A model generated the notes under the pieces. That model worked only from the letters and a program-made list of their open reading frames with translations, was not told the origin of the DNA and did no database searches. DNA of 64,000 bases from an uncultured Phycisphaerales bacterium (GTDB lineage: Bacteria > Planctomycetota > Phycisphaerae > Tepidisphaerales > Tepidisphaeraceae): NCBI GenBank assembly GCA_963844715.1, contig CAWJPJ010000006.1, positions 896,001 to 960,000 on the forward strand. The letters run 5' to 3'. Every line of letters starts with the position of its first letter. Position 1 is the stretch's first letter. Of this stretch, positions 24,815-60,096 are shown one piece after another. The translations under genes were made by a program, and so were the position numbers.

Positions 24815-25934
24815 ATGTCGAGCATGGATCATCTCGTTTCGCGCCGCCGCCGCCGTGGATGCCTCGGGCATCCGCAAGGTGTTCGATCTGGCCGCGAAAA
24901 TGTCCGACCCGATCAACCTTTCGATCGGGCAACCCGATTTCGACGTTCCTGAATTCGCCAAGGACGCCGCGATCGAGGCCATCCGCAAGGGGAACAATCG
25001 ATATACTCAAACTCAGGGAATCGCGCCGCTTCGCGAGCGCCTGCGCAAAGATCTCTCGGCGGAATTTTCCCACGACGTCGGAGAAGTGCTCATCACCAGC
25101 GGCGTCAGCGGCGGCTTGATGCTGGCTCTCCTGGCCACCATCGACCCGGGTGATGAGGCGATTTTCCTCGATCCTTACTTCGTCATGTACAAGCATCTGC
25201 TCACTCTGGCCGGGGGGAAGCCGGTGATCGTGGACAGCTATCCCGATTTTCGCTTTCCCGCGGAGCGCGTCGAAAAGGCGATCACCTCCAAAAGCAAGCT
25301 GTTGATCCTGAACAGCCCCAGCAATCCTACCGGCGTGGCAATGAATCAGCGCGAAATCGACGACGCTGTGCGCATCGCCAAAAAACATAATCTGCTGATC
25401 GTCTCCGATGAGATTTACGAGCCGTTTCTATACGACGCGCCGCGCGGCCTGCCGAGCGCCGGGCATTCGCATGAAAACACTTTGATTCTTCGCGGATTTT
25501 CCAAGAGCCACGGCATGACCGGATGGCGACTCGGCTATGCCGCCGGCCCGTCGGAGATCATTTCGCAGATGACCAAGCTTCAGCAGTACACATTCGTCTG
25601 TGCCCCGGCGCCGTTTCAATACGGAGCACTGAAGGCGTTGGACGTCCCGATGGAGGACGCCGTGGCCGCGTATCGCCAGAAGCGCGATTTGGTCTGCCAT
25701 CGGCTGCATCGGAAATTCGAACTGGTCGTCCCCGAGGGGGCGTTCTACGTCTTTCCGAAGGCCCCGGCCGGGATGACCGGGAGCCAGTTCGTAGCCAAGG
25801 CGATCGATAACAACGTCCTGATCATTCCGGGGAACGTCTTTTCGGAGCGTGATACCCATTTCCGAATCAGCTACGCGACGACGATGGAGAAGTTGGAGGC
25901 GGGCTGCGAAATTCTTTGCAAGCTGGCCGGGTGA
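24815..25934 (+). CDS. Class I/II PLP-dependent aminotransferase (indel near 24845)
   Basis: NLSIGQPDF, NSPSNPTG, SDEIY, GFSKSHGMTGWRLGY. Confidence 0.92.
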
Positions 25935-25982
25935 TCTCGCGGGTGCTCAGAACTGTCAGATTCCGCGATCAATCGGATGGAT

Positions 25983-26012
25983 TTGAAAATCCGTCCGCCA
26001 GCGCGTTAGTAT
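25983..26012 (+). promoter_or_regulatory. Possible sigma70 promoter for the stand-alone tRNA
   Basis: TTGAAA-N18-TAGTAT. Confidence 0.4.
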
Positions 26013-26093
26013 GGCGTCGTGCGGGTCGAATCTACTTGTGAATAGTCCTGCTGACGCCAACCGGCAACGATCGCTCTTCGGGGCGAGGCGGCT

Positions 26094-26178
26094 CCGGCAG
26101 TGGCGGAACTGGCAGACGCTCTGGATTGTCAATCCAGTGATCCACAAGATCGTACGGGTTCGAATCCCGTCTCCCGGA
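26094..26178 (+). tRNA. Atypical class II tRNA: Leu-type body with GTC (Asp) anticodon
   Basis: CCGGCAG TG GCGG AACTGGCAGA CGC T CTGGA TT-GTC-AA TCCAG T GATC CACAA GATC GT ACGGG TTCGAAT CCCGT CTCCCGG A; followed by GC and T6. Confidence 0.8.
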
Positions 26179-26224
26179 GCTTTTTTCGTTTGACTTATGC
26201 CAAATCCGCGTCGATAACATTGTT

Positions 26225-26270
26225 ATCTTGTGGATCACTGGATTGCAGCCCCAGATTGACACCTGGGGCT
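26225..26270. repeat. 21-nt antisense copy of the tRNA plus 8-bp hairpin
   Basis: 26225-26245 is the exact reverse complement of 26130-26150; stem agccccag/ctggggct with loop attgacac. Confidence 0.85.
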
Positions 26271-26311
26271 AATTTATTGGTCACGCCTGCCCTCCGCCGT
26301 CCCCATCAAGC

Positions 26312-29300
26312 TTACTTGTCATCCCCATCGCTCAGCACTCGATCCACGGTCGTCGTAATCGTATTGAAGCTCGTCGCCGAAACTTTCGGCTGCTGAATCG
26401 TTCCGCTGACGTGGATTCTGAGCAGTTCCTGCTTGGCCCCGTAGATCAGCGGCCCGAGGACGGGAAGGCTGACCAGCGTGGGGTTATCCGTCACAAACCA
26501 GAGGCTCACTCGCTTGGCCGCGAAATCGAGCTGGCCGTTGCCGTTCATCGTCATGTCCTTGCTCTTGAGGATGATTTGATCGAAGACGACCTGTTGGCCG
26601 TCGATGGCGTAGCGCGTGGTGGCCTCGGCGAAGGGGCTGCTGAGGGGAAGGGAGAGATTGGTGATCTGGAGCAGGCCTAGGAGGATGGGGAGGTTGTACA
26701 TATTTTCGCCGGTGACGCGGACGTCGCCGTGGCCGCGGCGGCTGGTGGGATCGCCGAGGGTGCCGTCGAGATTGAGCGAGGCGGTCAGCTTGCCGCTGAC
26801 GCCCTGGTTCTCCGGGGCGGCAAGTTGCGCGACATCGGCGTCGCGAAGAACCAGGCCGAAGTCGTACCGGCCGGGCGAGGTGTCCTGATCGTTGTCGGAG
26901 TAGCTGAATTGCCCGCTCCCACTGAGATCGCCGCCGGCGAAATCGCCGCCGAAGCGCGAGATCTCGATGACCGGATCATCCGCCGGTTTGGCGATCATCG
27001 CCGAGAAATTTTGCGCAGGGCGTCCGGCCAGAAGGAGATTGTCGGCGGATAGCTGCATGCCAAGCCGGTGCAGCTTTCCGTCGCGCACCAATCCCGCGAC
27101 ATCCATCGCGCCCGTGGCGCCCGCGATGGGGAGGCCGATGTCCAGATTCGCGCCTAGAAGGCTGACCTTGGCGGCAAAGTCGATGTCCGGGCCGTGCCGC
27201 GTCCGCCGAGCCCGGACGGTAAGCCAACCGTGAGAAGTCCAAGCCGACCGAGCCGGTGAGTTTCAACGTCTTAATAATGTCGGATACCGTTTCAGGTACG
27301 GCGGCGATGGCGTCCGCGTCGAGCGGAACAGGGTCCGCGGTCAATTTCAATACCCATTCCGGATGCTCGCCGAGATCTCCTTCGCCCGTGACGGCAAGCG
27401 CCGATTTGCCGTGATGCGCGGTGATTTGCTTGAGCAACACTTTGGTCGGGGAGACGCTTAAAAGCCCATGCACGTCGTCCATCCGATATGGAAAAATCTG
27501 CGGCTTCACCGAAAGCTGAACGGGGTGAATCTGCAAATCGAGCTTTTCATCCGGGTCGGGTGCGCCGCTGAGCGCGGAGGCATATTCAACAGTCGCGTTT
27601 ATGCTTCCCTGCGGCTGGATCTCGTCCCACGCCTGTTTGGCCGGATCGGGCAACGCGGCGTACAGTGCCGGTTCCAGGGGAACATTTTCCGCGATGGCGG
27701 AAAGCATGATCCGCGGAGGCCGGGCCGACGGTTCGCCTGGCGCGGGAGCGCTCCATGCGATGGAGAGATGTCCCGCGATGTCCCCGGTGCCGCGTTTGGC
27801 GGTCATGTCCGTCAGCACGAAACTCGTCGGGGTGATTCGCATCTGGGCGCTGATCCCGGAAAGCGCGTAGGCATTTCCCAACGGCCAGAGAGCGCCATTG
27901 TGCAAATGGGCGTTGAACAGAAAATCGACGTTGGGATTGGGCGAGTTGTCCTGCACTTTGGAGGGCGTCACATTGCCTTCCACCTCGATCAACCCGGTCG
28001 CTCCCACGGCGACGAGCCAATCGCGCTCGGCGGCGGGCAGAGCGCCTTTTAATTCGTCATCGAGCGGAAGATTTCTGGCAACGACGTGCAAATTCGGCCC
28101 CACCGGCTGGGTCGTCGCCGGTCCGTGATTGGATTTCCAGGTGATCCGGCCATTGATATCGACCGACGCGGTGCCGCGGCGCATGGCGATATTCTTCAGA
28201 TCGACAAAGCGATCGTGAACTTCCAAACGGCCCGTCACGTGACTCATGGGATAAGGGAAGAAGACAAGCGTACCGGCGGCATCCTTGAGATCGACGTCAG
28301 TCGTGAAGTCGAAACGCCGGTGCTGGCCAGGCTGACGCTCGATATGGCAAACGACGTCCGCGCGGAATTGCGGGAGCGCCGCCGGTGCCGTCGGGATCGA
28401 AAAGGCGCAGCGCCCGGTCAACCTGAGGGGGCATTGCCGTGCGCAGAGCCGGCTCGCTGGCGATGTCCTTGGCGCTGACGTCCAGCCATATTCCGGCCAC
28501 TTGATCGAGGGGGCCAATGAATCCGTTGATGGTAACAGTCGAATTCGCGTTGGGGCCGTCTTTCAACCCGTAACCGGTGACGCCGAGCACGCGGATTCCG
28601 TCCATTTTCGTAAGTGGATCGTGCCCGATGAGGATTTCGCCCGTCGCGTCGCAGAGCGGATAGGGAAAGTCGGCGAATTTGAATTGCCCGTCGTGGATAT
28701 CGATCGCGCCGACCACCGCCGGGCGCGCGCCGGCTTCGCCGCGATTGAGCGTGACCGACACGCTGCACGTCCCCTGCGGATGCAGGCGCTCGTAAATCTC
28801 CTGAACCTCCGGCGGCAAAGACCCGGCGTAGGTGGGCGACCAGGCGGGGATTTCCAAATCGTGCCCCGGCATGGACGAGACCGTCAGCTTCGCCGCGGCG
28901 TCGGGGGAATAGCCGTGGATGATGCCGTCGAGATCGAACCAGTTGTTTTCAAGGCGGCCGTTGATGCCGTTGAGGGTCAGATCATCCTGAGTGAACACGA
29001 GCGTCCCGGAAACCTGCCGGAGATGCACCGGTTGCGGTGTGCTCAGGCGGCGCAGGGAATCGATGACATCCTGCGTGATCCATTGTCCGGGCTGGAGAGA
29101 GTCCAACAACGCGTGGAATTTCCGCACGTTTTCATTTTGCCGGCGGCTCATCCATTCCTCGGGGCTGACGGCCAGTTCGACGCTGCTGAGAGAAATTTCC
29201 ATGCGGAAGGAGGGTTGCTCGCCGGGCTTGCCGGGCGTGAAATACATTTCCGGCACGTCGATGCGTCCCTGGAGCTGGTGGCGTTCGCACCATTCTCGCG

Positions 29301-30085
29301 GCTCGGTGAAGAGCATCGTTTTGATGTCAGGACCGAAAGTGAAGTTGCGCAGGCGGGCAAACGAGACGCCGCCGTCGGTGCGGATGGTTCCTTCGACGCT
29401 GGGTCCGATGGATTCGCGGCCGCGGCTTTGAAACTGGAAGTCGTACTGGTCCGACTCCTCGCCGGGGGAGAGGGAGCCTTCGAGGCTGTACCAGCCGATG
29501 GTCTGGGTGTGATTGTTGCGCATCTCCAGGTAAGCGACCTGGGCGTCGCGGAGGATGATCTGGGGAAGAACGGGCGGCCCGTTGGCAGCGCTCTTGTCGT
29601 GGCGGGGAGGAACGCCTTTGCCGTGCCAAAGGCGCTGATAATTCCAGCGGTGGGTCTGGGCGTCTTCGACGAGAATGACCGTGGGTTCGATGGCGACGAT
29701 CTGCGTGCCGGAGATTTTGCCGGCCAGCAATTCGAAGGGATTGTATTTGATCAGCAGCGTCTGCGCGTGAAAGACCGTGGCGTCGGGAGTGGGCGGGCCT
29801 TCTACGCGGACGGTCACGTCGTCGAGGCGCAGCCCTTCAAAGATGGAGAGGCTAGCGCGGCGGATTTGGACGTCGCCCCCGAGGAGATCGGAAAGGTAGC
29901 TTTCCGCCATGGCGCGGACGCGTTTTGCGTCGGTGATCCAACCGTAGCCGAGGATGACGACGCACAAGCCGACCAGGACGGAGAACATGCACTTGCGGCG
30001 GATGGGGGAGCAGCGCGGCGCAGGGGTGCTTGGGCCGCCAGGTGCGGTCAAACAGGCGGTCGGGATTCGCCAGGCTCCAGGCCAT
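26312..30085 (-). CDS. Large AsmA/YhdP-like envelope protein (several frameshifts)
   Basis: N-terminal TM, repeated beta-rich segments (FPYP...GEI), AsmA-like C-terminus (NGNGQLDF...LLRIHVSGTIQQPKV); ORFs 28297..30051, 26976..28517, 26312..27106. Confidence 0.75.
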
Positions 30086-45881: not shown

Positions 45882-48800
45882 ATGGCCTCGCCGGCGTTTG
45901 TTCATCTCCATTGTCACACCCATTACTCGCTGCTTGACGGCGCTTGCAAGATTCCCAATCTCGTGAAGCGAGCCAAGGAACTGGGGATGGACAGCCTGGC
46001 GATCACGGATCACGGATGCCTCTTCGGCGTAATCGAATTCTTTACCGAGTGCAAAAAGGAAGGCATCCGCCCGATTTTGGGGATGGAAGCCTATATGGCG
46101 CCCGGCGACCGGCGCGACCGGACTTCCGCCGGGCCGGGCGGCTCCGATGCGGCTTATCATCTCCTGCTCCTCTGCCAGAACATCGAGGGATACCGAAATC
46201 TGCTCAAGCTCTCGACCACGGCTTATCGCGACGGGTTTTACTACCGGCCGCGAATCGACAAGGAAGTTTTGCGCGAATTGAACGGCGGGTTGATCTGCAC
46301 GAGCGCGTGCCTCGGCGGGGAAATTCCGTCGGCACTTTTGCATCGCGACGCCAAATCGGCGCGGAAAATCGCCGAAACTTATCTCGATATTTTCGGGCCC
46401 GAGCGATTTTTCATCGAGGTGCAAAACCAGGGGATCGCCGAGCAGAATATCGTCAATCCGGAACTGGCGGAGATCGCCAAAAAACTGGGTGTCGGGCTGG
46501 TGGCGACCAATGACGTGCATTTCCTCAACCGCGACGATCACCACGCCCACGACGTTCTCTGCTGCATCAGCATGGGGAGGCTGGTCACTGACGAGGGGCG
46601 GCTGAAATACCCCGAGCACCTTTACCTGAAAAGCCCGCAGGAAATGCAGGAATCGCTCGGCGGATTCGACCAGGCCATCGAAAATACCGTCGCTATCGCG
46701 CGGCGCTGCGATGTGGCGCTGGAATTCGGGAAAAAACACGCGCCGGTTTACAAAGTTCCCAAGGAAGCGATTAAGTCGAAATCCGGCGGGGACATGCCGG
46801 ATGACGCCCGATATCTGCGCCAGCTTTGCGAAGAGGGATTGTCCTGGAGATACGGCAAAAGGGAAATCTCGCCGGAGATTCGCTCCCGGCTCGATTACGA
46901 ACTAGAGGTGATCACAAGCAAAAACTTCTGCTCCTATTTTTTGATCGTTTGGGATTTCTGCAATTTTGCGCGCAGCAGGGAATTCCGGTCGGCGCTCGCG
47001 GCAGCGGCGTCGGGACGATGGTGGGATATTTGCTTGGCTTGTGCAACGTCGATCCGCTTCGCTATGGATTGCTCTTCGAGCGATTCATGGACCCGAACCG
47101 AAACGAGATGCCGGATATCGATATCGATATCTGCCAGGAAGGACGAGGCAAAATCATCGAATATGTGCGGCAGAAATACGGACACGTCGCCCAGATCATC
47201 ACCTTCGGCACGCTTGCCGCGGCGCGGTTTGCAAGGATGTCGGCCGGGTATTGGGCGTGCCGCTGGCGATCACGGATAAGCTCACCAAGCAGATTCCCGC
47301 GGCCGTGGGGATGACGCTTCAGAAGGCGCTCGATCAATCGCCGGAATTGGCCGCGATGGTCGAGTCGGACCCGCAAGTCAAGAATATCGTCGAGATCGGG
47401 CAGCGCCTCGAAGGCCTATGCCGCAACGCGGGGATGCACGCGGCGGGCGTGGTGATCGCGGATCAGCCGCTGGAGAATTTCGTCCCGCTTTACAAGGCGG
47501 GCGACGACATTCTCACCCAATTCGAAGGGCCGATTGTCGAAAAAGTCGGCCTGCTCAAGATGGATTTCCTTGGGCTGCGCACGCTCACAGTTTTGCAGCG
47601 ATCGATCGAACTGGTGAAGAAGATCAAGGGGATCGACATCGACATCGAGGCGATCGATCAAAGCGACAAGAACGTTCTGGCCCTGTTTTGCCGAGGGGAA
47701 ACGAAAGGCGTGTTCCAATTTGAGTCCGGCGGAATGCAGGATTTGCTGATGAAGATGCAGCCGGATCGGCTGGAGGATTTGATCGCCGCCAACGCGCTCT
47801 ATCGCCCCGGACCGATGGAGCTCATCCCGCTTTATTGCAATCGCAAGCACGGGCGCGAAAAAGTCCCGCAAGTCCACCCGATCATGGACCGCATCCTTTC
47901 CGAGACCTACGGGATCATGGTCTACCAGGAACAGGTGATGCAAATCTTCAATCAGCTCGGCGGCATCGAACTCAGCGATGCTTACAAGCTGATCAAAGCC
48001 ATCAGCAAAAAGACCAGCGATGTGATCGCCAAGTATCGGCCGGACTTCATCAAGGGCGCCAAGGCGAAGGGGATCGCGCAGGAACAGGCCGAGGACATTT
48101 TCGAGCTGATCCTTAAATTCGGCGGGTATGGATTCAACAAAAGCCACTCGACGCGCTACGCCATCATCGCCTTCCAGACGGCGTTTATGAAGACCTATCA
48201 CCCGCTGGAATACATGGCCGCCCTGCTCACGTTCGAAATGGGCTCGACGGACAAGATGGTCGAGTACATCGAGGAATGCAAGAGGATGACCGTGGACGGG
48301 CATCGCGGGATTCGCGTTTTGCCGCCGGACGTCAATGATTCCGATCAGGATTTCACGCCGGTTTATATCGAAGCCGCCGGGAAGAAGCGCAAGGCCGCGA
48401 GCAAGACCGGAGTGATCCGATTCGGACTGGTCGCGGTTCGCGGCATCGGCGAAAAAGCCGCCGAGGCGATCATCGAACAGCGCCGTGCCAAGGGGCAGTT
48501 CCTCAGCATTTACGATTTCTGCGAGCGCGTGGATATGCGCCAGGTGACGCGATCGACCACCGAAGCGCTCATCAAATGCGGCGCATTTTCATCAACCGGA
48601 GCCAGGCGTTCGCAATTGCTGTCCGTGTTGGATCGTGCCGTCGAAATGGGTCAGCAGATGCAGCAGGATCAGCGGTCGGGGCAGTTGAATATCTTCGGCG
48701 AGGCGAGCCCCGCCGGTGCCACTGCCGGGCGGGGAGGATCGCTGCCCGATGTTCCGGAAATCCCCAGCGCGGAATTGCTGAAATTCGAAAAAGACTTGCT

Positions 48801-49536
48801 GGGATTTTACGTGACGAGCCACCCCCTGGCGGAACATCAGATGGCGCTTTCGAATTACGCGACGGCGACCACGCGCGAGGTTCAGAAAATGGCCGAGGGA
48901 TCGGAAGTCGTTGTCGGCGGCTTGATTTCGCGCGTGAAGCGCACGGTAACCAAACAGGGCCGGTCGGCGGGGAAGCCGATGGCGATCTTGACCCTGGAAG
49001 ATTTGGAAGGGCAAATCGACGCGACGCTCTTCGCCGAAACTTTGGCTCAGACCACGGAAAAATATCCGGACGCGGTCGCCGTCGAGCAGATCGTTTTTCT
49101 CAAAGGCAAGGTCGATCGGCGACGGGAGACGCCGGGAATTCTGGTCAACGAGCTTTTGCCAGTGGACGACGCGATTTCGCGGCTGACCAGCGACGTGAAG
49201 GTGCAGATCGACGTCGCGGATTCGGCGACGATCATCGCCGATTTGAAGCCGGTGCTGGCACGGCATCGGGGGCGGGTCAAGACGTTTTTGCAAGTCCCCG
49301 CCTCGGGGGTCAAGAAGGCACTGATCCGCCTCGATGAGCAATGGTATCTTCGCCCTACGCGGGCGATGGTGGACGAATTGCAGGCGGCGTTAGGCTCGCG
49401 CGGAAAAGTTGAACTTGCCGGCGAAGGAACGCGCCGGCTCAAACGATTGCAGCAGCAGCAACTTTTCCAAAACGCCGCGGTCGAATCGGAGCCGCCGAGC
49501 GATGTGCCGGCGGATGTTGTGGAACAGGAAGTGTAG
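45882..49536 (+). CDS. dnaE: DNA polymerase III alpha subunit (frameshifts near 46975 and 47220)
   Basis: FVHLHCHTHYSLLDG (PHP), ARGSG, MPDIDID, GLLKMDFLGLRTL, YGFNKSH, OB fold. Confidence 0.95.
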
Positions 49537-52145: not shown

Positions 52146-53031
52146 GGCCTGTCTGATGAATCGCTTTTGGTTATAAATAGCGGTTTTCAGACGAGGTGTC
52201 ACGGATGCGACGTTATGAGCTCACGGATGAGCAGTACGAGTTGATCGGCGATCTGCTGCCCGGCAACGGCAAGCGCGGCGGGCAGTGGAACGACCACCGC
52301 ACCACGCTCAACGGCATGTTCTGGATTCTGCACTCGGGCGCTCAATGGCGCGAGATGCCCGAACGTTACGGCAGATGGCAAAGCGTCTACGACCGCTTCA
52401 ACCGCTGGAGAAAGGACGGAACGATTGATCGAATCCTCCAGCGGCTGCAGATGAGGTTGGACAAGCAAGGACGAATCGACTGGGACCTGTGGTGCATCGA
52501 CGGCACCAATGTGCGAGCCAGTCGATCCGCCGCCGGAGCCAGAAAATCAAAACCGCCCCGGAAGAACCGGCGGATCACGCGTTGGGCCGCAGCCGAGGCG
52601 GGTGGGGCAGCAAGCTCCACCTGGTTACTGACGGCCAGGGAGTTCCGCTCGCCGTCGAGGCCATGCGCCGGCCAATGCCACGAGAGCCGGTACGTGGAGC
52701 CGGTGATGAACGCGATGCGCATCGGTCGCCGCCGTCGTCGCCCCAGGAGGCTGGCGGGCGACAAGGGATACAGTTACGGAAATGTGCGGCGATGGCTGCG
52801 TCGCCACCGAATCCAAGCGGTGATCCCGGCGAAATCGAATCAGCCGCCGCAGGAGAACTTTGATCGCAAGGCGTATCGCCGACGGAACGTGGTGGAGCGT
52901 TGCGTGAATTGGATGAAGGAGAATCGCCGCCTGGGCACGCGTTACGAGAAACTGGCGGTGAACTTTCAGGCCATGGCCAAGCTCGCCATGATCCGTCGCT
53001 ATTTCAGGATTTTGGATTCATCAGACAGGCC
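52146..53031 (+). mobile_element. IS5-family insertion sequence (IS427-like), about 886 bp
   Basis: 17-bp perfect TIRs ggcctgtctgatgaatc; flanked by CTAG on both sides. Confidence 0.92.
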
Positions 53032-53035
53032 CTAG
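52196..53035 (+). CDS. IS5-family transposase (middle segment in an alternate frame)
   Basis: LTDEQY, WILHSGAQWREMPERYG, IDGT, ALGRSRGGWGSKLHL (alternate frame), GDKGY, YRRRNVVER, RYEK. Confidence 0.88.
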   Translation: MSRMRRYELTDEQYELIGDLLPGNGKRGGQWNDHRTTLNGMFWILHSGAQWREMPERYGRWQSVYDRFNRWRKDGTIDRILQRLQMRLDKQGRIDWDLWCIDGTNVRASRSAAGARKSKPPRKNRRITRWAAAEAGGAASSTWLLTAREFRSPSRPCAGQCHESRYVEPVMNAMRIGRRRRRPRRLAGDKGYSYGNVRRWLRRHRIQAVIPAKSNQPPQENFDRKAYRRRNVVERCVNWMKENRRLGTRYEKLAVNFQAMAKLAMIRRYFRILDSSDRP

Positions 53036-56625: not shown

Positions 56626-56698
56626 GGGCCTGTAGCTCAGCGGCCAGAGTGCTTGCTCGACACGCAAGAGGTCCGTGGTTCGATTCCACGCCGGCCCA
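56626..56698 (+). tRNA. tRNA-Val(GAC)
   Basis: CTTGC TC-GAC-AC GCAAG; cloverleaf; no CCA. Confidence 0.85.
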
Positions 56699-56721
56699 CT
56701 CTCGGTTCGCGCCGCATTCGG

Positions 56722-56959
56722 GCGCCTAGAGCGGCTTGCGGCTCCGCGTAGCGAGCCAGTTGGCCTCGGCTGCAACGGAGGCAAGGATGAACGACGAGGC
56801 GTATCAGAAAATCAGATACGTTGAGGAGCGAAGACGCGGCATCCGTTGCAGCCGTGGACAAATGGCCGCTAGGCGGAGCCGCAATCCGCTCTAAGCTCAA
56901 TCGGCGAGAGCGCCGCGCTTACATCGCGGAGGATGTTGGTTCGAGTCCAGCTTGGCGCA
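56722..56959 (+). pseudogene. tRNA-Val(TAC) interrupted after its 5-prime acceptor strand
   Basis: D, anticodon (CCGCG CT-TAC-AT CGCGG), T arm and TTGGCGCA at 56894-56959; complementary GCGCC lies upstream of the insert. Confidence 0.7.
56727..56893. mobile_element. MITE-like element, 167 bp
   Basis: 21-bp TIRs (20/21) tagagcggcttgcggctccgc; nested internal inverted repeats. Confidence 0.7.
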
Positions 56960-57050
56960 TGGAGATGAAAAATGACGGGAATGCCCGGAAAATCAAGGTG
57001 TTTTCGCGTTGTTGACTGAACGGAAACGCCGCGAGAATCAAGGTTTTTTT

Positions 57051-57122
57051 GCGCTGTTAGCTCAGAGGCAGAGCACCCGGCCGATAACCGGGAGGCCGGA
57101 GAGTCGAGAACTCCACGGCGCA
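57051..57122 (+). tRNA. tRNA-Ile(GAT), degenerate T loop
   Basis: CCCGG CC-GAT-AA CCGGG; acceptor GCGCTGT/ACGGCGC. Confidence 0.75.
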
Positions 57123-57187
57123 CTGAATTGGCGACGCGTCGTTAGCAGGCAAATGGATTCTCGCTGAACCCCGCGCGCTCTTCTCTT

Positions 57188-57228
57188 CCCCCCTCTCCCG
57201 GTACTCCGGGGGAGGGCTGGGGTGGGGG
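57188..57228. repeat. REP-like palindrome
   Basis: ccctctcccgg-tact-ccgggggaggg followed by ctggggtggggg. Confidence 0.55.
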
Positions 57229-57275
57229 CCGGCGCAATTCAGGCAAGATCCGCGGTAATCGGCAGTTCGCCTCGG

Positions 57276-57350
57276 GCACTGGTAGCTCAACTGGATCAGA
57301 GTTCCGGTCTACGAAACCGGAGGTTGAAGGTTCGACCCCTTCCCAGTGCG
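57276..57350 (+). tRNA. tRNA-Arg(ACG)
   Basis: CCGGT CT-ACG-AA ACCGG. Confidence 0.88.
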
Positions 57351-57407
57351 TTATGAACGAAAAATGGTTGTATATATATCTATTGCAATACAACCAGAAG
57401 TGTCCGC

Positions 57408-57479
57408 GCACTCGTAGCTTAAGGGTTAAGCCGCCGGTTCTTACCCGGCCTGATGCAGGTTCGAATCCTGCCGGGTGCA
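57408..57479 (+). tRNA. tRNA-Lys(CTT)
   Basis: GCCGG TT-CTT-AC CCGGC. Confidence 0.85.
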
Positions 57480-57534
57480 TGAAAGGAGAATCGAAAAATG
57501 AGCCCGAGCAGAACCAAACGGTGCAGGTAAATCC

Positions 57535-57609
57535 GCACCGGTAGCTCAATGGAAACAGAGCAACCCTCTTCTAAAGGGTCGGCTGAGGGTTCGAGTCCCT
57601 CCCGGTGCA
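57535..57609 (+). tRNA. tRNA-Arg(TCT)
   Basis: ACCCT CT-TCT-AA AGGGT. Confidence 0.88.
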
Positions 57610-57623
57610 TGTAGATTCCGCGC

Positions 57624-57695
57624 GCACCGGTAGCTCAACGGCAGAGCCGCCGCCTTTTAAGCGGAGTGATGCGGGTTCGAGTCCTGCTCGGTGCA
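57624..57695 (+). tRNA. tRNA-Lys(TTT)
   Basis: CCGC CT-TTT-AA GCGG. Confidence 0.88.
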
Positions 57696-57707
57696 TGAAT
57701 ACACCAC

Positions 57708-57781
57708 GGTTCAGTAGCCCAATCGGCAGAGGCGCCTGACTCAGAATCAGGATAGTGCAGGTTCGAATCCTGCCTGAACTA
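57708..57781 (+). tRNA. tRNA-Leu(CAG) lacking the long variable arm
   Basis: CCTGA CT-CAG-AA TCAGG; variable loop only ATAGT. Confidence 0.85.
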
Positions 57782-57792
57782 TTTCGGCGAAC

Positions 57793-57868
57793 GTTGCGGT
57801 AGCTCAATCGGATTCAGAGCGCGGCCCTCCGAAGGCCGAGGGTGAAGGTTCGATTCCTTCCCGCGACA
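57793..57868 (+). tRNA. tRNA-Arg(CCG)
   Basis: CGGCC CT-CCG-AA GGCCG. Confidence 0.88.
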
Positions 57869-57878
57869 TCGAAAATTC

Positions 57879-57950
57879 GGGCCCGTCGTCTAACGGAAAG
57901 ACTCCTGGCCTGCACCCAGGAAATGAGGGTTCAATTCCCTCCGGCGTCCA
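57879..57950 (+). tRNA. tRNA-Ala(TGC)
   Basis: CCTGG CC-TGC-AC CCAGG; G3-U70; one extra base in the acceptor stem. Confidence 0.8.
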
Positions 57951-58036
57951 TGCGAGCGGCTTCGTCCGCTCCAGAAAGAAGGTGATCGATCATGAGCGAA
58001 AACTCATCGGAAAGTTCATCTAGCGGCTCCACATCC

Positions 58037-58124
58037 GGAGGGTTGGCTGAACGGCTAAGGCACCCGTCTCGAAAACGGGCATTCCCGATGACTGGGATTG
58101 GGGGTTCGAATCCCTCACCCTCCG
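58037..58124 (+). tRNA. tRNA-Ser(CGA)
   Basis: CCCGT CT-CGA-AA ACGGG; long variable arm; G73. Confidence 0.88.
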
Positions 58125-58149
58125 CTGAAGTAAACGAGAACGTGCGCAT

Positions 58150-58239
58150 GGAGGGTTGGCAGAGCGGACGATTGCGCCGCGGTGCTAACGCGGAAGGCGC
58201 CGACTAGGCGTCTCGAAGGTTCGAATCCTTCACCCTCCT
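58150..58239 (+). tRNA. tRNA-Ser(GCT)
   Basis: CCGCG GT-GCT-AA CGCGG; long variable arm. Confidence 0.85.
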
Positions 58240-58254
58240 TTGGAATGTGCGAGA

Positions 58255-58294
58255 GGGAACGGAGCTGGTCCGTTCCCGGAATGTTCTTTGACAA
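58255..58294 (+). promoter_or_regulatory. boxB-boxA-like antitermination signal
   Basis: Hairpin gggaacgga-gctgg-tccgttccc then TGTTCTTTGACAA (compare rrn boxA TGCTCTTTAACA). Confidence 0.55.
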
Positions 58295-58310
58295 TCCGGT
58301 GGCGTAATTC

Positions 58311-58384
58311 GCCGTCATAGCTCAGTCGGGATGAGCGTCCGGTCGTCAACCGGAAGGTCATGGGTTCGATTCCCATTGGCGGCG
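58311..58384 (+). tRNA. tRNA-Asp(GTC)
   Basis: TCCGG TC-GTC-AA CCGGA; class I; G73. Confidence 0.85.
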
Positions 58385-58412
58385 TTGGGCGCGAATTCCG
58401 CGCGCCTTCGAA

Positions 58413-58484
58413 GTGGATTTAGCTCAATCGGTAGAGCAGAGGTCTGAAAATCCTCCCGCCCTGGTTCAATTCCAGGAATCCACA
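58413..58484 (+). tRNA. tRNA-Phe(GAA)
   Basis: GAGGT CT-GAA-AA TCCTC. Confidence 0.85.
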
Positions 58485-58506
58485 TGTCGGCCAAAGGCCG
58501 CGAATC

Positions 58507-58578
58507 GCGTCGGTAGTTCAGCGGGTGGAACACCGCTATGCCAAGGCGGAGGCCCGGGTTCGATCCCCGGCCGGCGCA
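58507..58578 (+). tRNA. tRNA-Gly(GCC)
   Basis: CCGCT AT-GCC-AA GGCGG; A73. Confidence 0.85.
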
Positions 58579-58583
58579 TTCTC

Positions 58584-58655
58584 GCAGTGGTAACTCAATC
58601 GGCAGAGTACCGGTCTTCCAAACCGGCAACGTGGGTTCGAATCCCGCTCACTGCA
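58584..58655 (+). tRNA. tRNA-Gly(TCC)
   Basis: CCGGT CT-TCC-AA ACCGG; A73. Confidence 0.88.
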
Positions 58656-58691
58656 CTAAAGGGACTTTCGACGGTTGAGGATCTTTTTCAA

Positions 58692-58764
58692 GCCGTGGTA
58701 GCTCAACGGGTAGAGCAGTCGTCTCGTAAACGACAGATTGCCGGTTCGATCCCGGCCCGCGGCT
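58692..58764 (+). tRNA. tRNA-Thr(CGT)
   Basis: GTCGT CT-CGT-AA ACGAC. Confidence 0.88.
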
Positions 58765-58777
58765 TTTCAAAAAAATC

Positions 58778-58851
58778 GGGTGCGTAGCTCAGCGGCAAGA
58801 GCAGGGGCCTCATAAGCCTCAGGTCGTTGGTTCAAATCCAACCGTTACCCA
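58778..58851 (+). tRNA. tRNA with CAT anticodon (elongator Met or Ile2)
   Basis: GGGGC CT-CAT-AA GCCTC; one extra base in the acceptor 3-prime strand. Confidence 0.8.
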
Positions 58852-58852
58852 G

Positions 58853-59203
58853 TCAGGGATAGTTCAAACCGGTAGAACGCTCGGCTCTGAACCGGGATGT
58901 TGGAGGTTTCGGAGCAGCTTCATCTGTTTTGTAGCGTCTGCGTTGCGTCCAGATGGGCCGGGCGCTAGGCAGAGCGACGAGTTGGGTCAGGCACAGCGAC
59001 CCGGCGAGGAGCGATAACGACGCGAACGGCCCATCTGGACGCAACCCTCCGGGTCGCCGCCTTTTGCGGCCCATGCGTCGTTACTCCTCCTCGCCGTATC
59101 GTTTCACCTGATACGACTCGTCGTCGCGCCTAGCCTGTGCCGCAAAAGGCGGCGACGCAGACGCTACAAAACAGATGAAACTGCTCTGATCCTTCTCCCT
59201 GAA
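58853..59203 (+). pseudogene. tRNA-Gln(CTG) interrupted in the T loop
   Basis: TCAGGGA...CTCGG CT-CTG-AA CCGGG...GGAGG TT [insert] T CCTTC TCCCTGA A. Confidence 0.8.
58909..59189. mobile_element. MITE-like element, 281 bp
   Basis: 37-bp TIRs (34/37) at 58909-58945 and 59153-59189; several internal inverted repeats. Confidence 0.78.
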
Positions 59204-59204
59204 T

Positions 59205-59277
59205 TGAGCCGTAGTTTAATCGGTAGCAATGCCGGTCTTTGAATCCGGAGATCGTGGTTCAAATCCACGCGGCTCAA
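59205..59277 (+). tRNA. tRNA-Gln(TTG)
   Basis: CCGGT CT-TTG-AA TCCGG; U1-A72. Confidence 0.85.
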
Positions 59278-59283
59278 CTTCTT

Positions 59284-59356
59284 ACCCATGTAGCTCAACC
59301 GGTAGAGCAGGCGGCTGTTAACCGCCGTGGTGGTGGTTCGAATCCATCCGTGGGTG
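59284..59356 (+). tRNA. tRNA-Asn(GTT)
   Basis: GGCGG CT-GTT-AA CCGCC; G73. Confidence 0.88.
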
Positions 59357-59448
59357 TGGGCGGCGCTTCGCGCCACCAGAGCGTAGAAAGTAGAGGCCGA
59401 GAATTTTCTACTTTCCACTTTCCACGAACCACTTTCTCGCGCAGCGCC

Positions 59449-59520
59449 GCTCCTGTCGTCCAACGGTCAGGATACCGGGCCTTCAACCGGAGAATGTGGG
59501 TTCAATTCCCACCGGGAGTG
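59449..59520 (+). tRNA. tRNA-Glu(TTC)
   Basis: CCGGG CC-TTC-AA CCGG (anticodon stem one base short, possible indel). Confidence 0.75.
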
Positions 59521-59536
59521 CATGGAGAAATGATTT

Positions 59537-59610
59537 CAGCGTGTGGCGTAGCTTGGTAACGCACGTGCCTCGGGCGCACGGGATCGAAGGTTCGAATCCT
59601 TCCACGCTGA
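59537..59610 (+). tRNA. tRNA-Pro(CGG)
   Basis: CGTGC CT-CGG-GC GCACG; C1-G72, A73. Confidence 0.88.
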
Positions 59611-59615
59611 CTTTC

Positions 59616-59701
59616 GCGTAGGTCGCATAATTGGCATTGCAGCGGGCCGTAACCCCGCCGACCCTTAGTGGTCCCTGGGGGTTCAAATCCCTCCCTACGC
59701 A
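59616..59701 (+). tRNA. tRNA-Tyr(GTA)
   Basis: GCGGG CC-GTA-AC CCCGC; variable arm. Confidence 0.85.
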
Positions 59702-59827
59702 TTGCCGCAAAGCGGCAATAGAGCGGTGGCGCAGTCGAACAGCCAACGAATGACTCGAGGAAATCGTCCCCGTCAGACGATCCCACCGCGGTCTACTGCT
59801 CCCCTGCTCTACTGTTCAGAATTTTCC

Positions 59828-59900
59828 GCGCCGGAAGTTCCAACGGCGGAACGCCCGCCTCCAAATCGGGAAGCGGCAGGTTCGATCCCTGCTCGGCGCG
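59828..59900 (+). tRNA. tRNA-Trp(CCA)
   Basis: CCCGC CT-CCA-AA TCGGG; G73; A at position 8. Confidence 0.8.
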
Positions 59901-59911
59901 CTGGCAGTTTC

Positions 59912-59983
59912 GAGGATGTGGCCGATTGGACAGGCGCGGGTCTGCAAAGCCCGTCGATGCTGGTTCGAATCCAGTCATCCTCT
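59912..59983 (+). tRNA. tRNA-Cys(GCA)
   Basis: CGGGT CT-GCA-AA GCCCG; U73. Confidence 0.88.
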
Positions 59984-59989
59984 TTTGAT

Positions 59990-60064
59990 GGTGGCCGTAG
60001 CTCAAACGGTCAGAGCACCGGGCTGTGAACCCGGTCGGTGTGAGTTCGAGTCTCACCGGTCACC
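59990..60064 (+). tRNA. tRNA-His(GTG)
   Basis: CCGGG CT-GTG-AA CCCGG; G-1:C73. Confidence 0.88.
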
Positions 60065-60096
60065 CTGTATTGCTGTTGATGGCTGGAAATTTGAGA

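Follow-up and report, generated by a model that had tools for sequence, protein, structure and literature searches.

A 64,000-nucleotide (nt) stretch of the genome of an uncultured Phycisphaerales bacterium (assembly GCA_963844715.1, contig CAWJPJ010000006.1, positions 896,001 to 960,000; hereafter the window, within which positions are counted from 1) carries a transfer RNA (tRNA) gene that has a leucine-type, class II body but the aspartate anticodon GTC. A second gene is predicted 45 nt 3′ of it, encoding a small RNA (sRNA) of about 54 nt whose 5′ end is perfectly complementary to the tRNA over 21 nt. Both sequence elements and their complementarity are observed, as is their recurrence with co-variation in other bacteria. 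A first-pass annotation of the window had described the tRNA as stand-alone, when it in fact adjoins the predicted antisense RNA gene and makes up half of a two-gene cassette. That the sRNA exists and pairs with the tRNA is judged to be probable. The wider reading favoured here, to which slightly less than an even chance is given, is that the two genes form an RNA-only, toxin-antitoxin-like cassette, in which the tRNA would be charged with leucine (Leu) and decode aspartate (Asp) codons, and the sRNA would be a dedicated anti-tRNA that restrains it. Transcription, Leu charging, decoding, toxicity, in vivo pairing and biological role are predictions from the sequence.

Structure and predicted identity of the tRNA

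The tRNA gene (26094-26178, plus strand) is 85 nt long. ARAGORN reports a tRNA with anticodon gtc at 26093-26180, and the Rfam tRNA family (RF00005) matches 26094-26178 with 51.0 bits (gathering score 29, E 5.2e-8). Parsed by hand, the sequence forms a 7/5 cloverleaf with a 7-bp acceptor stem (CCGGCAG/CTCCCGG) that begins with C1:G72 and contains a C5.C68 mismatch, followed by U8 and G9, the D arm GCGGAACTGGCAGACGC, the anticodon arm CTGGA-TTGTCAA-TCCAG, a 16-nt variable region with a 4-bp stem (GATC/GATC), the T arm ACGGG-TTCGAAT-CCCGT and the discriminator base A73. CCA is not encoded, which is normal in this genome (none of 18 tRNA genes inspected encodes it). The anticodon GTC (26128-26130, plus strand), on which sequence, ARAGORN and parse agree, lies in the loop TTGTCAA and reads GAC/GAU. 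The cloverleaf, Leu-type D arm, 4-bp variable arm, A73 and loop TT-GTC-AA had all been recognised in the first-pass annotation, and they are confirmed by the sequence, ARAGORN and Rfam.

Apart from the anticodon, the molecule resembles a Leu tRNA. It has the long variable arm, the 7/5 architecture, A73 and the Leu-type D arm (A14, A15, G18G19 and a 3-bp D stem), and the D arm is a single base away from that of four native Leu tRNAs; a Leu anticodon (NAG or YAA) is replaced by GTC. In bacteria, the identity of tRNA-Leu resides in A73 and features of the D arm, and that of tRNA-Asp in G73 and C38, with the GUC anticodon as the main determinant for AspRS. The candidate is a class II tRNA of 85 nt where the native tRNA-Asp is a class I tRNA of 75 nt, and it has A73 and A38, not G73 and C38; its Asp-like features are limited to GUC and G10. 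According to PMC11028032, the anticodon is not recognised by LeuRS, SerRS and AlaRS. Since LeuRS is blind to the anticodon, the candidate should accept Leu and, so charged, should read GAC/GAU.

The host genome (4.55 Mb in 8 contigs, approximately 59% G+C) has 74 tRNA genes according to ARAGORN, and all five Leu isoacceptors (CAG, CAA, TAG, TAA and GAG) are encoded elsewhere in it. A native-looking class I tRNA-Asp(GTC) of 75 nt is present at 611182-611256 of contig C6, and a second class I tRNA-Asp lies in the tRNA array of the window, where it had been placed at 58311 and where ARAGORN calls it at 58310-58385. The GTC tRNA is an extra decoder beside the canonical tRNA-Asp, not a replacement for it. 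The genome holds one LeuRS gene and one AspRS gene, and no extra copy of either was found in it. Among 722 long open reading frames (ORFs), GAC and GAT together account for 61 per 1000 codons, and GCG, GGC, GAC, CGC and GAT rank 2nd, 3rd, 6th, 7th and 9th of the 64 codons; the anticodons of the related modules described below thus read abundant codons, as measured in this genome only.

The first-pass annotation had advised a check of the sequence at the anticodon. In three soil-metagenome runs of a single study, contigs spanning the entire tRNA match it without a difference, at a depth of 2-3, and show no variant at the anticodon. All three agree over the tRNA and part of the sRNA, and the contigs of one run cover the entire cassette. 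These runs are possibly the source of the assembly, so that their agreement is not independent.

Several flanking features of the tRNA had likewise been noted, and each is present. The leader GCT (26091-26093, plus strand) pairs with AGC at 26178-26180 and extends the acceptor helix to 10 bp (90% complementary), and the T6 run (26181-26186, plus strand) follows; the C5.C68 mismatch, the extension and the run are evident in the sequence and in an inverted-repeat search. Two readings of the T6 run are possible: a terminator tail belonging to the tRNA unit, or an A/T-rich element immediately 5′ of the sRNA -35 box. The segment 26091-26186 folds with -35.3 kcal/mol (z -2.10). Among the related modules, the same 3-bp extension occurs in L035 and a TGT/ACA version in L022, L024 and L029; T-rich tails 3′ of the tRNA are also found in L024, L029 and L035. 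A 6-bp hairpin with a UUCG loop, seen in the sequence and in the fold of 26013-26093, lies in the putative 5′ leader (26071-26086, plus strand). Approximately 80 nt 5′ of the tRNA lies the sigma70-like site TTGAAA-18-TAGTAT (25983-26012, plus strand), with 9/12 matches; it is the one promoter-like site in the upstream scan, compared with 0.3 expected in shuffles, and is a possible but weak tRNA promoter.

A predicted antisense partner and its recurrence

The second gene (26225-26278, plus strand) has a sigma70-like promoter of its own, an antisense segment and a terminator, and the predicted sRNA folds with -18.9 kcal/mol (z -2.82). Its -35 box is TTGACT (26190-26195, plus strand) and its -10 box GATAAC (26213-26218, plus strand), separated by a 17-nt spacer. 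The final T of the -10 box is missing; the homologous boxes read GATAAT or GATAGT in four relatives and TATCAT in L052. The antisense segment (26225-26245, plus strand) begins 6 nt past the -10 box, which is where transcription should start, and is complementary at 21/21 positions to 26130-26150 of the tRNA, an inverted repeat that was absent from the first-pass annotation. Its target comprises C36, A37-A38, the 3′ side of the anticodon stem, the 5′ strand and loop of the variable arm, and 3 nt of the 3′ strand of that arm. A terminator-like hairpin follows in sequence and fold (26247-26270, plus strand), which reads AGCCCCAG-ATTGACAC-CTGGGGCT and then AATTTATT. The bases TTGACA of its loop (26256-26261, plus strand) are complementary to U33-A38 of the anticodon loop.

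Co-folding of the tRNA with the sRNA yields a net gain of -23.1 kcal/mol, compared with a mean of -5.5 kcal/mol (sd 3.0, minimum -17.5) for 100 shuffled sRNAs. With 17 other tRNAs (Leu, Ser, Tyr and Asp, one of them likely a false call), the gain is 0 to -2.5 kcal/mol, and the native tRNA-Asp gives -0.8. No other long match to the sRNA region was found elsewhere in the genome. No Rfam family matches the sRNA. Across the 20 module loci described below, only tRNA and, in one locus (L068), transfer-messenger RNA (tmRNA) reach Rfam thresholds, and the sRNA parts score at chance level, below threshold (SorX, 24.4 vs 46.6 bits; CsrC, 19.3 vs 61 bits).

Homologues that keep GTC, which the first-pass annotation had proposed to look for, were sought in one genome for each of 185,579 species, with a pattern that combined a Leu-type D arm and, at the appropriate spacing 3′ of it, YT-GTC-R. 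Of the 48 loci returned, 34 have a class II GTC tRNA, and the gene in the window is therefore not a private error. According to the record titles, the taxa are Planctomycetota, Gemmatimonadota, Alphaproteobacteria, Acidobacteriota, Solirubrobacterales, Chloroflexota and others. A scan of metagenomes, in which any non-A base was allowed at position 35, gave at least 80 loci and at least 29 class II Leu-bodied tRNAs, with the anticodons TGG (6), GTC (4), CGC (4), GCC, AGG, TTA and ATC (2 each) and seven singletons. Another 26 of the 80 metagenome loci listed (L069, L072, L076, L078, L079 and 21 more) have TGA/TCA at the scanned position and no tRNA call; the 13 of these that were inspected are all tRNA-Leu genes interrupted in the anticodon loop, after ACTT, by an apparent group I intron, a known arrangement.

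The survey set of Leu-bodied tRNAs with non-Leu anticodons comprises 64 members, the window included, and is to be read as at least 64, as its metagenome part consists of the matches listed. A partner was defined as an exact antisense of at least 10 nt to the anticodon or variable arm, located +26 to +110 downstream. Such a partner is present in 20 of the 64 (10-21 nt, starting at +42 to +60), of which 14 have the anticodon GTC, 4 CGC, 1 GCC and 1 GCG, and the 21-nt complementarity of the window is the longest among these 20 modules. In comparison, antisense was found in 27 of 4032 non-cognate combinations of tRNA and downstream sequence, and in 1 of 24 normal Leu tRNAs, at +106. Co-variation was judged by this comparison of cognate with non-cognate pairs, the antisense and variable-arm columns of alignment A1 (six modules, see below) being out of register. 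Additionally, the complement of the anticodon in the sRNA varies with the anticodon, with GAC for GTC, GCG for CGC, GGC for GCC and CGC for GCG. Similarly, the cognate 5-mer of the anticodon loop, or its complement, appears in a downstream hairpin loop in 11 of 64 cases, compared with 31 of 2594 non-cognate ones; one of the 11 hairpins (L116) belongs to an adjacent array tRNA.

In the 16 modules from outside the Alphaproteobacteria, the antisense is preceded, at a distance of 4-9 nt, by a promoter-like site. This site has at least 8/12 matches in 15 of them (5.3% of shuffles), at least 9 in 10 (1.0%) and at least 10 in 6 (0.2%). Two designs can be distinguished. In design a (the window, L022, L024, L029, L035 and L052, whose record titles all name Planctomycetota or Phycisphaerae), the 5′ end of the sRNA is antisense to the variable arm, and TGACA lies unpaired in the terminator loop in 6/6. 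Alignment A1 of these six modules has invariant columns that include TTGAC of the -35 box, ATA of the -10 box and TGACA. The terminator stem ACGCCGC/GCGGCGT is common to five of the six, and that of the window differs. In design b (L042, L047, L059, L080, L082, L102, L111, L119, L137 and L140), the 5′ end is antisense to the anticodon stem-loop itself and thus bears the matching codon GAC, GCG, GGC or CGC.

All 21 module tRNAs have A73, as do 53 of the 64 overall, and G1:C72 is present in 42 of the 64; the Leu-type D arm of the collected tRNAs was required by the search pattern. The tRNA of the window is 76-79% identical to the design-a tRNAs (74% for L029), compared with 72% to the Leu tRNAs of its own genome. 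The five other module hosts checked all keep a class I tRNA-Asp(GTC). No shared protein neighbour was found among five other modules, whose flanks include a pterin synthase, a sugar kinase, a PRPP synthetase, a restriction-type methylase and a DUF3800 protein. A simple scan across the modules found no conserved promoter upstream of the tRNA, and no stress-type promoter was recognised. Carriage of the cassette by phages was considered and set aside: among the viral loci listed (at least 80), 13 have mismatched Leu-bodied tRNAs, and one of these (L264) has a 10-nt antisense.

Other arrangements were observed at some loci. In L036, L056 and L136, a hairpin stands 25 nt after the GTC tRNA, and its 7-nt loop equals the anticodon loop at 7/7 positions, co-varying with it at positions 32 and 38. 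Its T-run is on the opposite strand; from that strand, the hairpin is a convergent terminator, and its loop is complementary to the anticodon loop. At five alphaproteobacterial loci, an antisense to the variable arm is present without a clear promoter, and the downstream motif TTGACACC-N-CCAGC is common to all five. In one metagenome-assembled genome (MAG) of Rhizomicrobium (L068, 1-181, minus strand), an alphaproteobacterial two-piece tmRNA gene lies approximately 170 nt after the GTC tRNA on the same strand. Five metagenome loci (L083, L090, L106, L117 and L135) have Leu-bodied tRNAs with the anticodons AGG, TTA (ochre) or GCC, with CCA encoded in all but L117. A small ORF lies 26-34 nt downstream of these; the five ORFs appear homologous by eye, have a coiled-coil-like N-terminus and no Pfam match, and look like a different type of partner for mismatched tRNAs. 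One cultured isolate, Noviluteimonas lactosilytica strain A6 (L026, NZ_JAJGAK010000001.1:1085-1915), has a Leu-bodied class II GTC tRNA with A73; the partner definition given above found no clear antisense in it, and an inverted repeat, TGTCAAC/GTTGACA, lies downstream. Lastly, the gene directly 5′ of the module in a Phycisphaerae MAG (L199, 5527-5898, plus strand) encodes a QueD-like 6-pyruvoyl-tetrahydropterin synthase. The QueD-like family feeds the synthesis of queuosine, which modifies G34 of GUN anticodons. As a single case, this neighbour is probably a coincidence.

Genomic site and neighbourhood

The cassette occupies a 377-nt interval between an aminotransferase gene (24855-25934) and a convergent ORF that ends at 26312. 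In a genome of the same genus (G001), which lacks the cassette, 33 nt separate this gene pair; in another relative (G002) the distance is 1280 nt, with no tRNA in between. The cassette is also missing from a member of the same family (G004), where the gap is 113 nt; this genome is unpublished, and publication of that figure requires the permission of its depositors. No orthologue of the GTC tRNA was found in 40 relatives, and the similarity matches fetched from relatives (19/19 loci) are tRNA-Leu genes with Leu anticodons, at 74-86% identity. No second copy of the cassette was found in the genome. A Leu-type D arm with GTC was present in 3 of 401 sampled genomes of the phylum, this one included; the other two have the same strings as L036 and L056, whose records are titled Planctomycetota bacterium. 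The distribution of the cassette looks patchy and insertion-like, and at this site the cassette appears to have been inserted.

Other readings of the sequence were considered and rejected. An integrase attachment site does not fit a repeat that is short and inverted and has a promoter and a terminator flanking it, and there is no integrase near the locus; a Pfam scan of ten ORFs at 20.7-31.4 kb gave two matches, a transporter and an aminotransferase. A T-arm-like sequence upstream, GGGTCGAATC (26023-26032), could be taken for an older tRNA relic, and BLAST against the family gave only an 11-nt match (E 0.14). The boxes of a C/D-box-like guide are absent and the host is bacterial, for a T-box there is no Rfam match and the following gene is oriented the opposite way, and a retron would need a reverse transcriptase, of which there is none.

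Some genes appear to be broken. A protein of approximately 1258 amino acids in relatives is split into three ORFs here (26312-30051, minus strand), and LeuRS and AspRS are each split over two frames (C6:1037940-1040793 and C8:502707-504451, respectively), which suggests indel errors in the assembly and not real pseudogenes. In a DnaE-like ORF (46966-49536, plus strand), the match to the polymerase III alpha domain begins only at profile position 142, so that the N-terminal part is missing from this frame, which fits the same problem. Elsewhere in the window, an ORF for an IS4/IS5-type transposase is located at 52196-53035, and a dense array at 56626-60065 holds 27 tRNA genes by Rfam and 24 by ARAGORN. 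One of its members (57708-57781) shows the opposite mismatch, a class I body of 74 nt with the Leu anticodon CAG, and for another, tRNA-like gene (59449-59521), ARAGORN gives a 2-nt anticodon.

Interpretation and comparison with known systems

If the cassette works as a toxin-antitoxin pair, LeuRS, ignoring the anticodon, would charge the tRNA with leucine. The tRNA would then compete with tRNA-Asp at GAC/GAU (approximately 6% of codons), and the insertion of Leu for Asp would be proteotoxic. In the proposed restraint, the terminator loop UUGACA of the sRNA would kiss the anticodon loop, after which the 5′ end would zip 21 bp into the 3′ side of the anticodon and the variable arm, unfolding the L-shape. 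The duplex would block charging and decoding, and it may create a substrate for RNase III. A stable tRNA combined with a presumably labile, strongly promoted sRNA would give toxin-antitoxin behaviour, since tRNAs are long-lived and sRNAs short-lived. Possible roles are an addiction module or abortive infection upon a stop in transcription: after loss of a plasmid or island, or shut-off by a phage, the sRNA would decay and the stable tRNA would poison the proteome of the host and the phage.

Several observations are in keeping with this proposal. A dedicated antisense partner favours a tRNA that has to be restrained over a simple decoy. Near-consensus sRNA promoters, as opposed to no recognisable strong tRNA promoter, fit an antidote made in excess. 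The two RNA genes are adjacent and specifically complementary, as in type VIII toxin-antitoxin systems. A yeast tRNA-Ser engineered to carry GUC was described as 'extremely toxic' and gave peptides with Asp-to-Ser changes (PMC6125640).

A number of points weigh against it. Both RNAs are known here as predictions only, RNA runs covering 25940-26320 having been looked for and not found, and the 9/12 site 80 nt upstream of the tRNA is a modest promoter with no conserved counterpart in the other modules. The copy in the window is slightly worn in comparison with its relatives (C1:G72, C5.C68, a -10 box without its final T and the weak tail AATTTATT) and may be decaying. By the exact-match definition, 44 of the 64 mismatched Leu-bodied tRNAs are without a partner, and some have other neighbours; a partner is thus not obligatory. 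Some charging with Asp is possible, and the tRNA would then be harmless. The compactness and modifications of mature tRNAs may restrict invasion by an antisense RNA to precursors. In addition, the co-fold energies ignore tertiary structure, kissing loops and base modifications, and the family patterns demand a Leu-type D arm and Y32-U33...R37, with GTC alone in the genome scan.

The same parts could instead form a regulated mistranslation switch, in which a reversible burst of Asp-to-Leu change would be released under stress and the sRNA would set its dose, with no part in addiction or suicide. All structural evidence for the tRNA-sRNA pair applies equally to such a switch, and there is a precedent for deliberate mistranslation in bacteria, tRNAProX/ProRSx (from parts of the review PMC11415595). 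However, the distribution is patchy and insertion-like (no orthologue in 40 relatives, 3 of 401 phylum genomes), the target codons are among the most abundant, the exchange of Asp for Leu is non-conservative, and a stress-type promoter was not recognised. A switch is considered unlikely, although it ranks first among the alternatives. Improbable, and ranked next, is a tRNA-shaped RNA that does not translate, whether a sponge or decoy (titrating the sRNA, or decoying an enzyme or nuclease that binds anticodon loops) or an amino-acid donor outside translation. By inspection, the sRNA loop UUGACA could pair with the loop CUGUCGA of the native tRNA-Asp, with one G.U pair, and parts of PMC5389517 describe irregular tRNAs that are charged but unused in translation, as well as allo-tRNAs near toxin-antitoxin genes. 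Yet the long complementarity is only to the variable arm and anticodon stem of the special tRNA (co-folds with others gain 0 to -2.5 kcal/mol), the T loop, G18G19 and A73 are all kept, which a mere sponge would not need, and no transferase gene is a constant neighbour.

The wear described above, together with a terminator stem unlike the ACGCCGC/GCGGCGT of the five relatives and the rare and patchy occurrence of the cassette, could also mark a decaying relic of a horizontally acquired module that has no function in this genome. Neutral decay should first erode the complementarity, the cloverleaf and the loop. In fact, the complementarity is perfect and the longest of the 20 modules, the cloverleaf is otherwise intact at 51 bits, and the TTGACA loop is kept, which counts against a relic and leaves it a distinctly small chance. 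It is very unlikely that the gene is a spare tRNA-Asp, charged by AspRS through GUC despite its class II body and tuned by the sRNA as an extra isoacceptor. GUC, the strongest AspRS determinant, is present along with G10, but A73 stands in place of G73 and A38 in place of C38, the variable arm is long, and the hosts already own a canonical tRNA-Asp. Moreover, in sister modules the A73 Leu body is combined with anticodons for Ala, Gly and Arg but lacks G3:U70 and U73, which argues for a single common identity, Leu. Finally, it is hardly credible that the gene is an ordinary tRNA-Leu whose anticodon was altered by an assembly or sequencing error. The assembly does seem to carry indel errors, to judge from the split LeuRS, AspRS and 1258-residue protein, but GTC is at least two positions away from every Leu anticodon, and the genome encodes the full set of five Leu isoacceptors at other loci. 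The contigs of the three runs are in agreement, and the downstream antisense fits the sequence exactly as assembled, including C36. At least 37 further Leu-bodied GTC tRNAs are found elsewhere.

With the toxin-antitoxin-like cassette as the preferred reading, a more general proposal can be formulated, although it is doubtful at present: such modules may belong to a class of RNA-only toxin-antitoxin or abortive-infection cassettes that is widespread and has so far gone unrecognised. The toxin would be a mis-decoding Leu-bodied tRNA for abundant Asp, Ala, Gly or Arg codons, and the antitoxin an sRNA directed against that tRNA, docking at its anticodon loop and unzipping it. Should the pairing be functional, this would be the first case known to us of an RNA whose only evident job is to disable one particular tRNA, and also the first in which the tRNA itself is the dangerous cargo. 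It would constitute a new principle of toxin-antitoxin action or phage defence, protein-free and with the genetic code as a weapon, and would explain why identity-mismatched class II tRNAs (the allo-tRNAs and the Leu-bodied set) recur in genomes and metagenomes. It would also offer synthetic biology a natural, sequence-programmable off-switch for single tRNAs, and, with only two small RNAs, make the old question of how much missense decoding bacteria tolerate directly testable.

Among mismatched tRNAs, the nev-tRNAs of nematodes have Gly/Ile anticodons, and we know of no antisense partner for them. Like the candidate, they are class II tRNAs with anticodons that are neither Leu nor Ser, and the title of PMC3333845 refers to an alternative leucine code decoded by them, but they are eukaryotic. 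The first-pass annotation had allowed that similar genes might already be catalogued. This is correct insofar as allo-tRNAs with GUC have been published: the parts of Mukai et al. 2017 (PMC5389517) considered here describe class II-like tRNAs with GUC among three predominant anticodons and a patchy distribution, often near toxin-antitoxin genes, some of which killed E. coli on expression. Their architecture, however, is different. Both kinds are bacterial and class II-like, with an anticodon that misfits the predicted identity. In allo-tRNAs the acceptor/T stems are 8/4 or 9/3, the D stem is long and Sec-like and capped by a tetraloop, and the discriminator is G73 or U73, as for Ser identity. 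In the candidate these stems are 7/5, the D stem is Leu-type with 3 bp and a large loop, and the discriminator is A73; for an 8/4 reading, the eighth position would have to be a T.T pair. The main text of that paper does not use the word 'antisense' and describes no such partner. The tRNAProX/ProRSx system of Streptomyces and Kitasatospora is, like the candidate, a natural hybrid of identity and anticodon that encodes mistranslation, but its tRNA is class I with Pro identity and is accompanied by a dedicated synthetase protein, where the partner here is an RNA and no extra LeuRS was found (parts of PMC11415595). Those parts of the review mention no Leu-bodied Asp decoder and no RNA partner. 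Within full-text literature, a scope that excludes subscription-only papers and the supplements of PMC5389517 with the allo-tRNA sequences, neither a tRNA with a dedicated antisense sRNA nor a Leu-bodied bacterial tRNA with an Asp anticodon was found.

The cassette also differs from type I toxin-antitoxin systems, in which an antisense RNA acts on the mRNA of a small toxin, since its target is a tRNA and there is no conserved small ORF in the module. CopA/CopT of plasmid R1 and RNA I/RNA II of ColE1 are antisense pairs that act by kissing loops, with mRNA leaders or replication primers as targets and overlapping genes. The predicted sRNA is similar to these in having a loop complementary to the target loop beside a single-stranded stretch able to extend the duplex, and unlike them in having a tRNA target and a separate, neighbouring gene on the same strand. 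The 3′ETS-leuZ of E. coli is a processed tRNA-Leu trailer that sponges unrelated sRNAs; it shares with the cassette an RNA made beside a tRNA-Leu-type gene and the use of RNA-RNA pairing, whereas the predicted sRNA has its own promoter and is complementary to the adjacent tRNA. In the type VIII pairs CreT/CreA and SdsR/RyeA, toxin and antidote RNAs are encoded side by side, and CreT acts via the tRNA pool, as an mRNA-like RNA that sequesters a rare tRNA-Arg, while CreA works through Cascade at a promoter. In contrast to CreT/CreA, the putative toxin here is the tRNA itself, and the antidote would pair directly with it.

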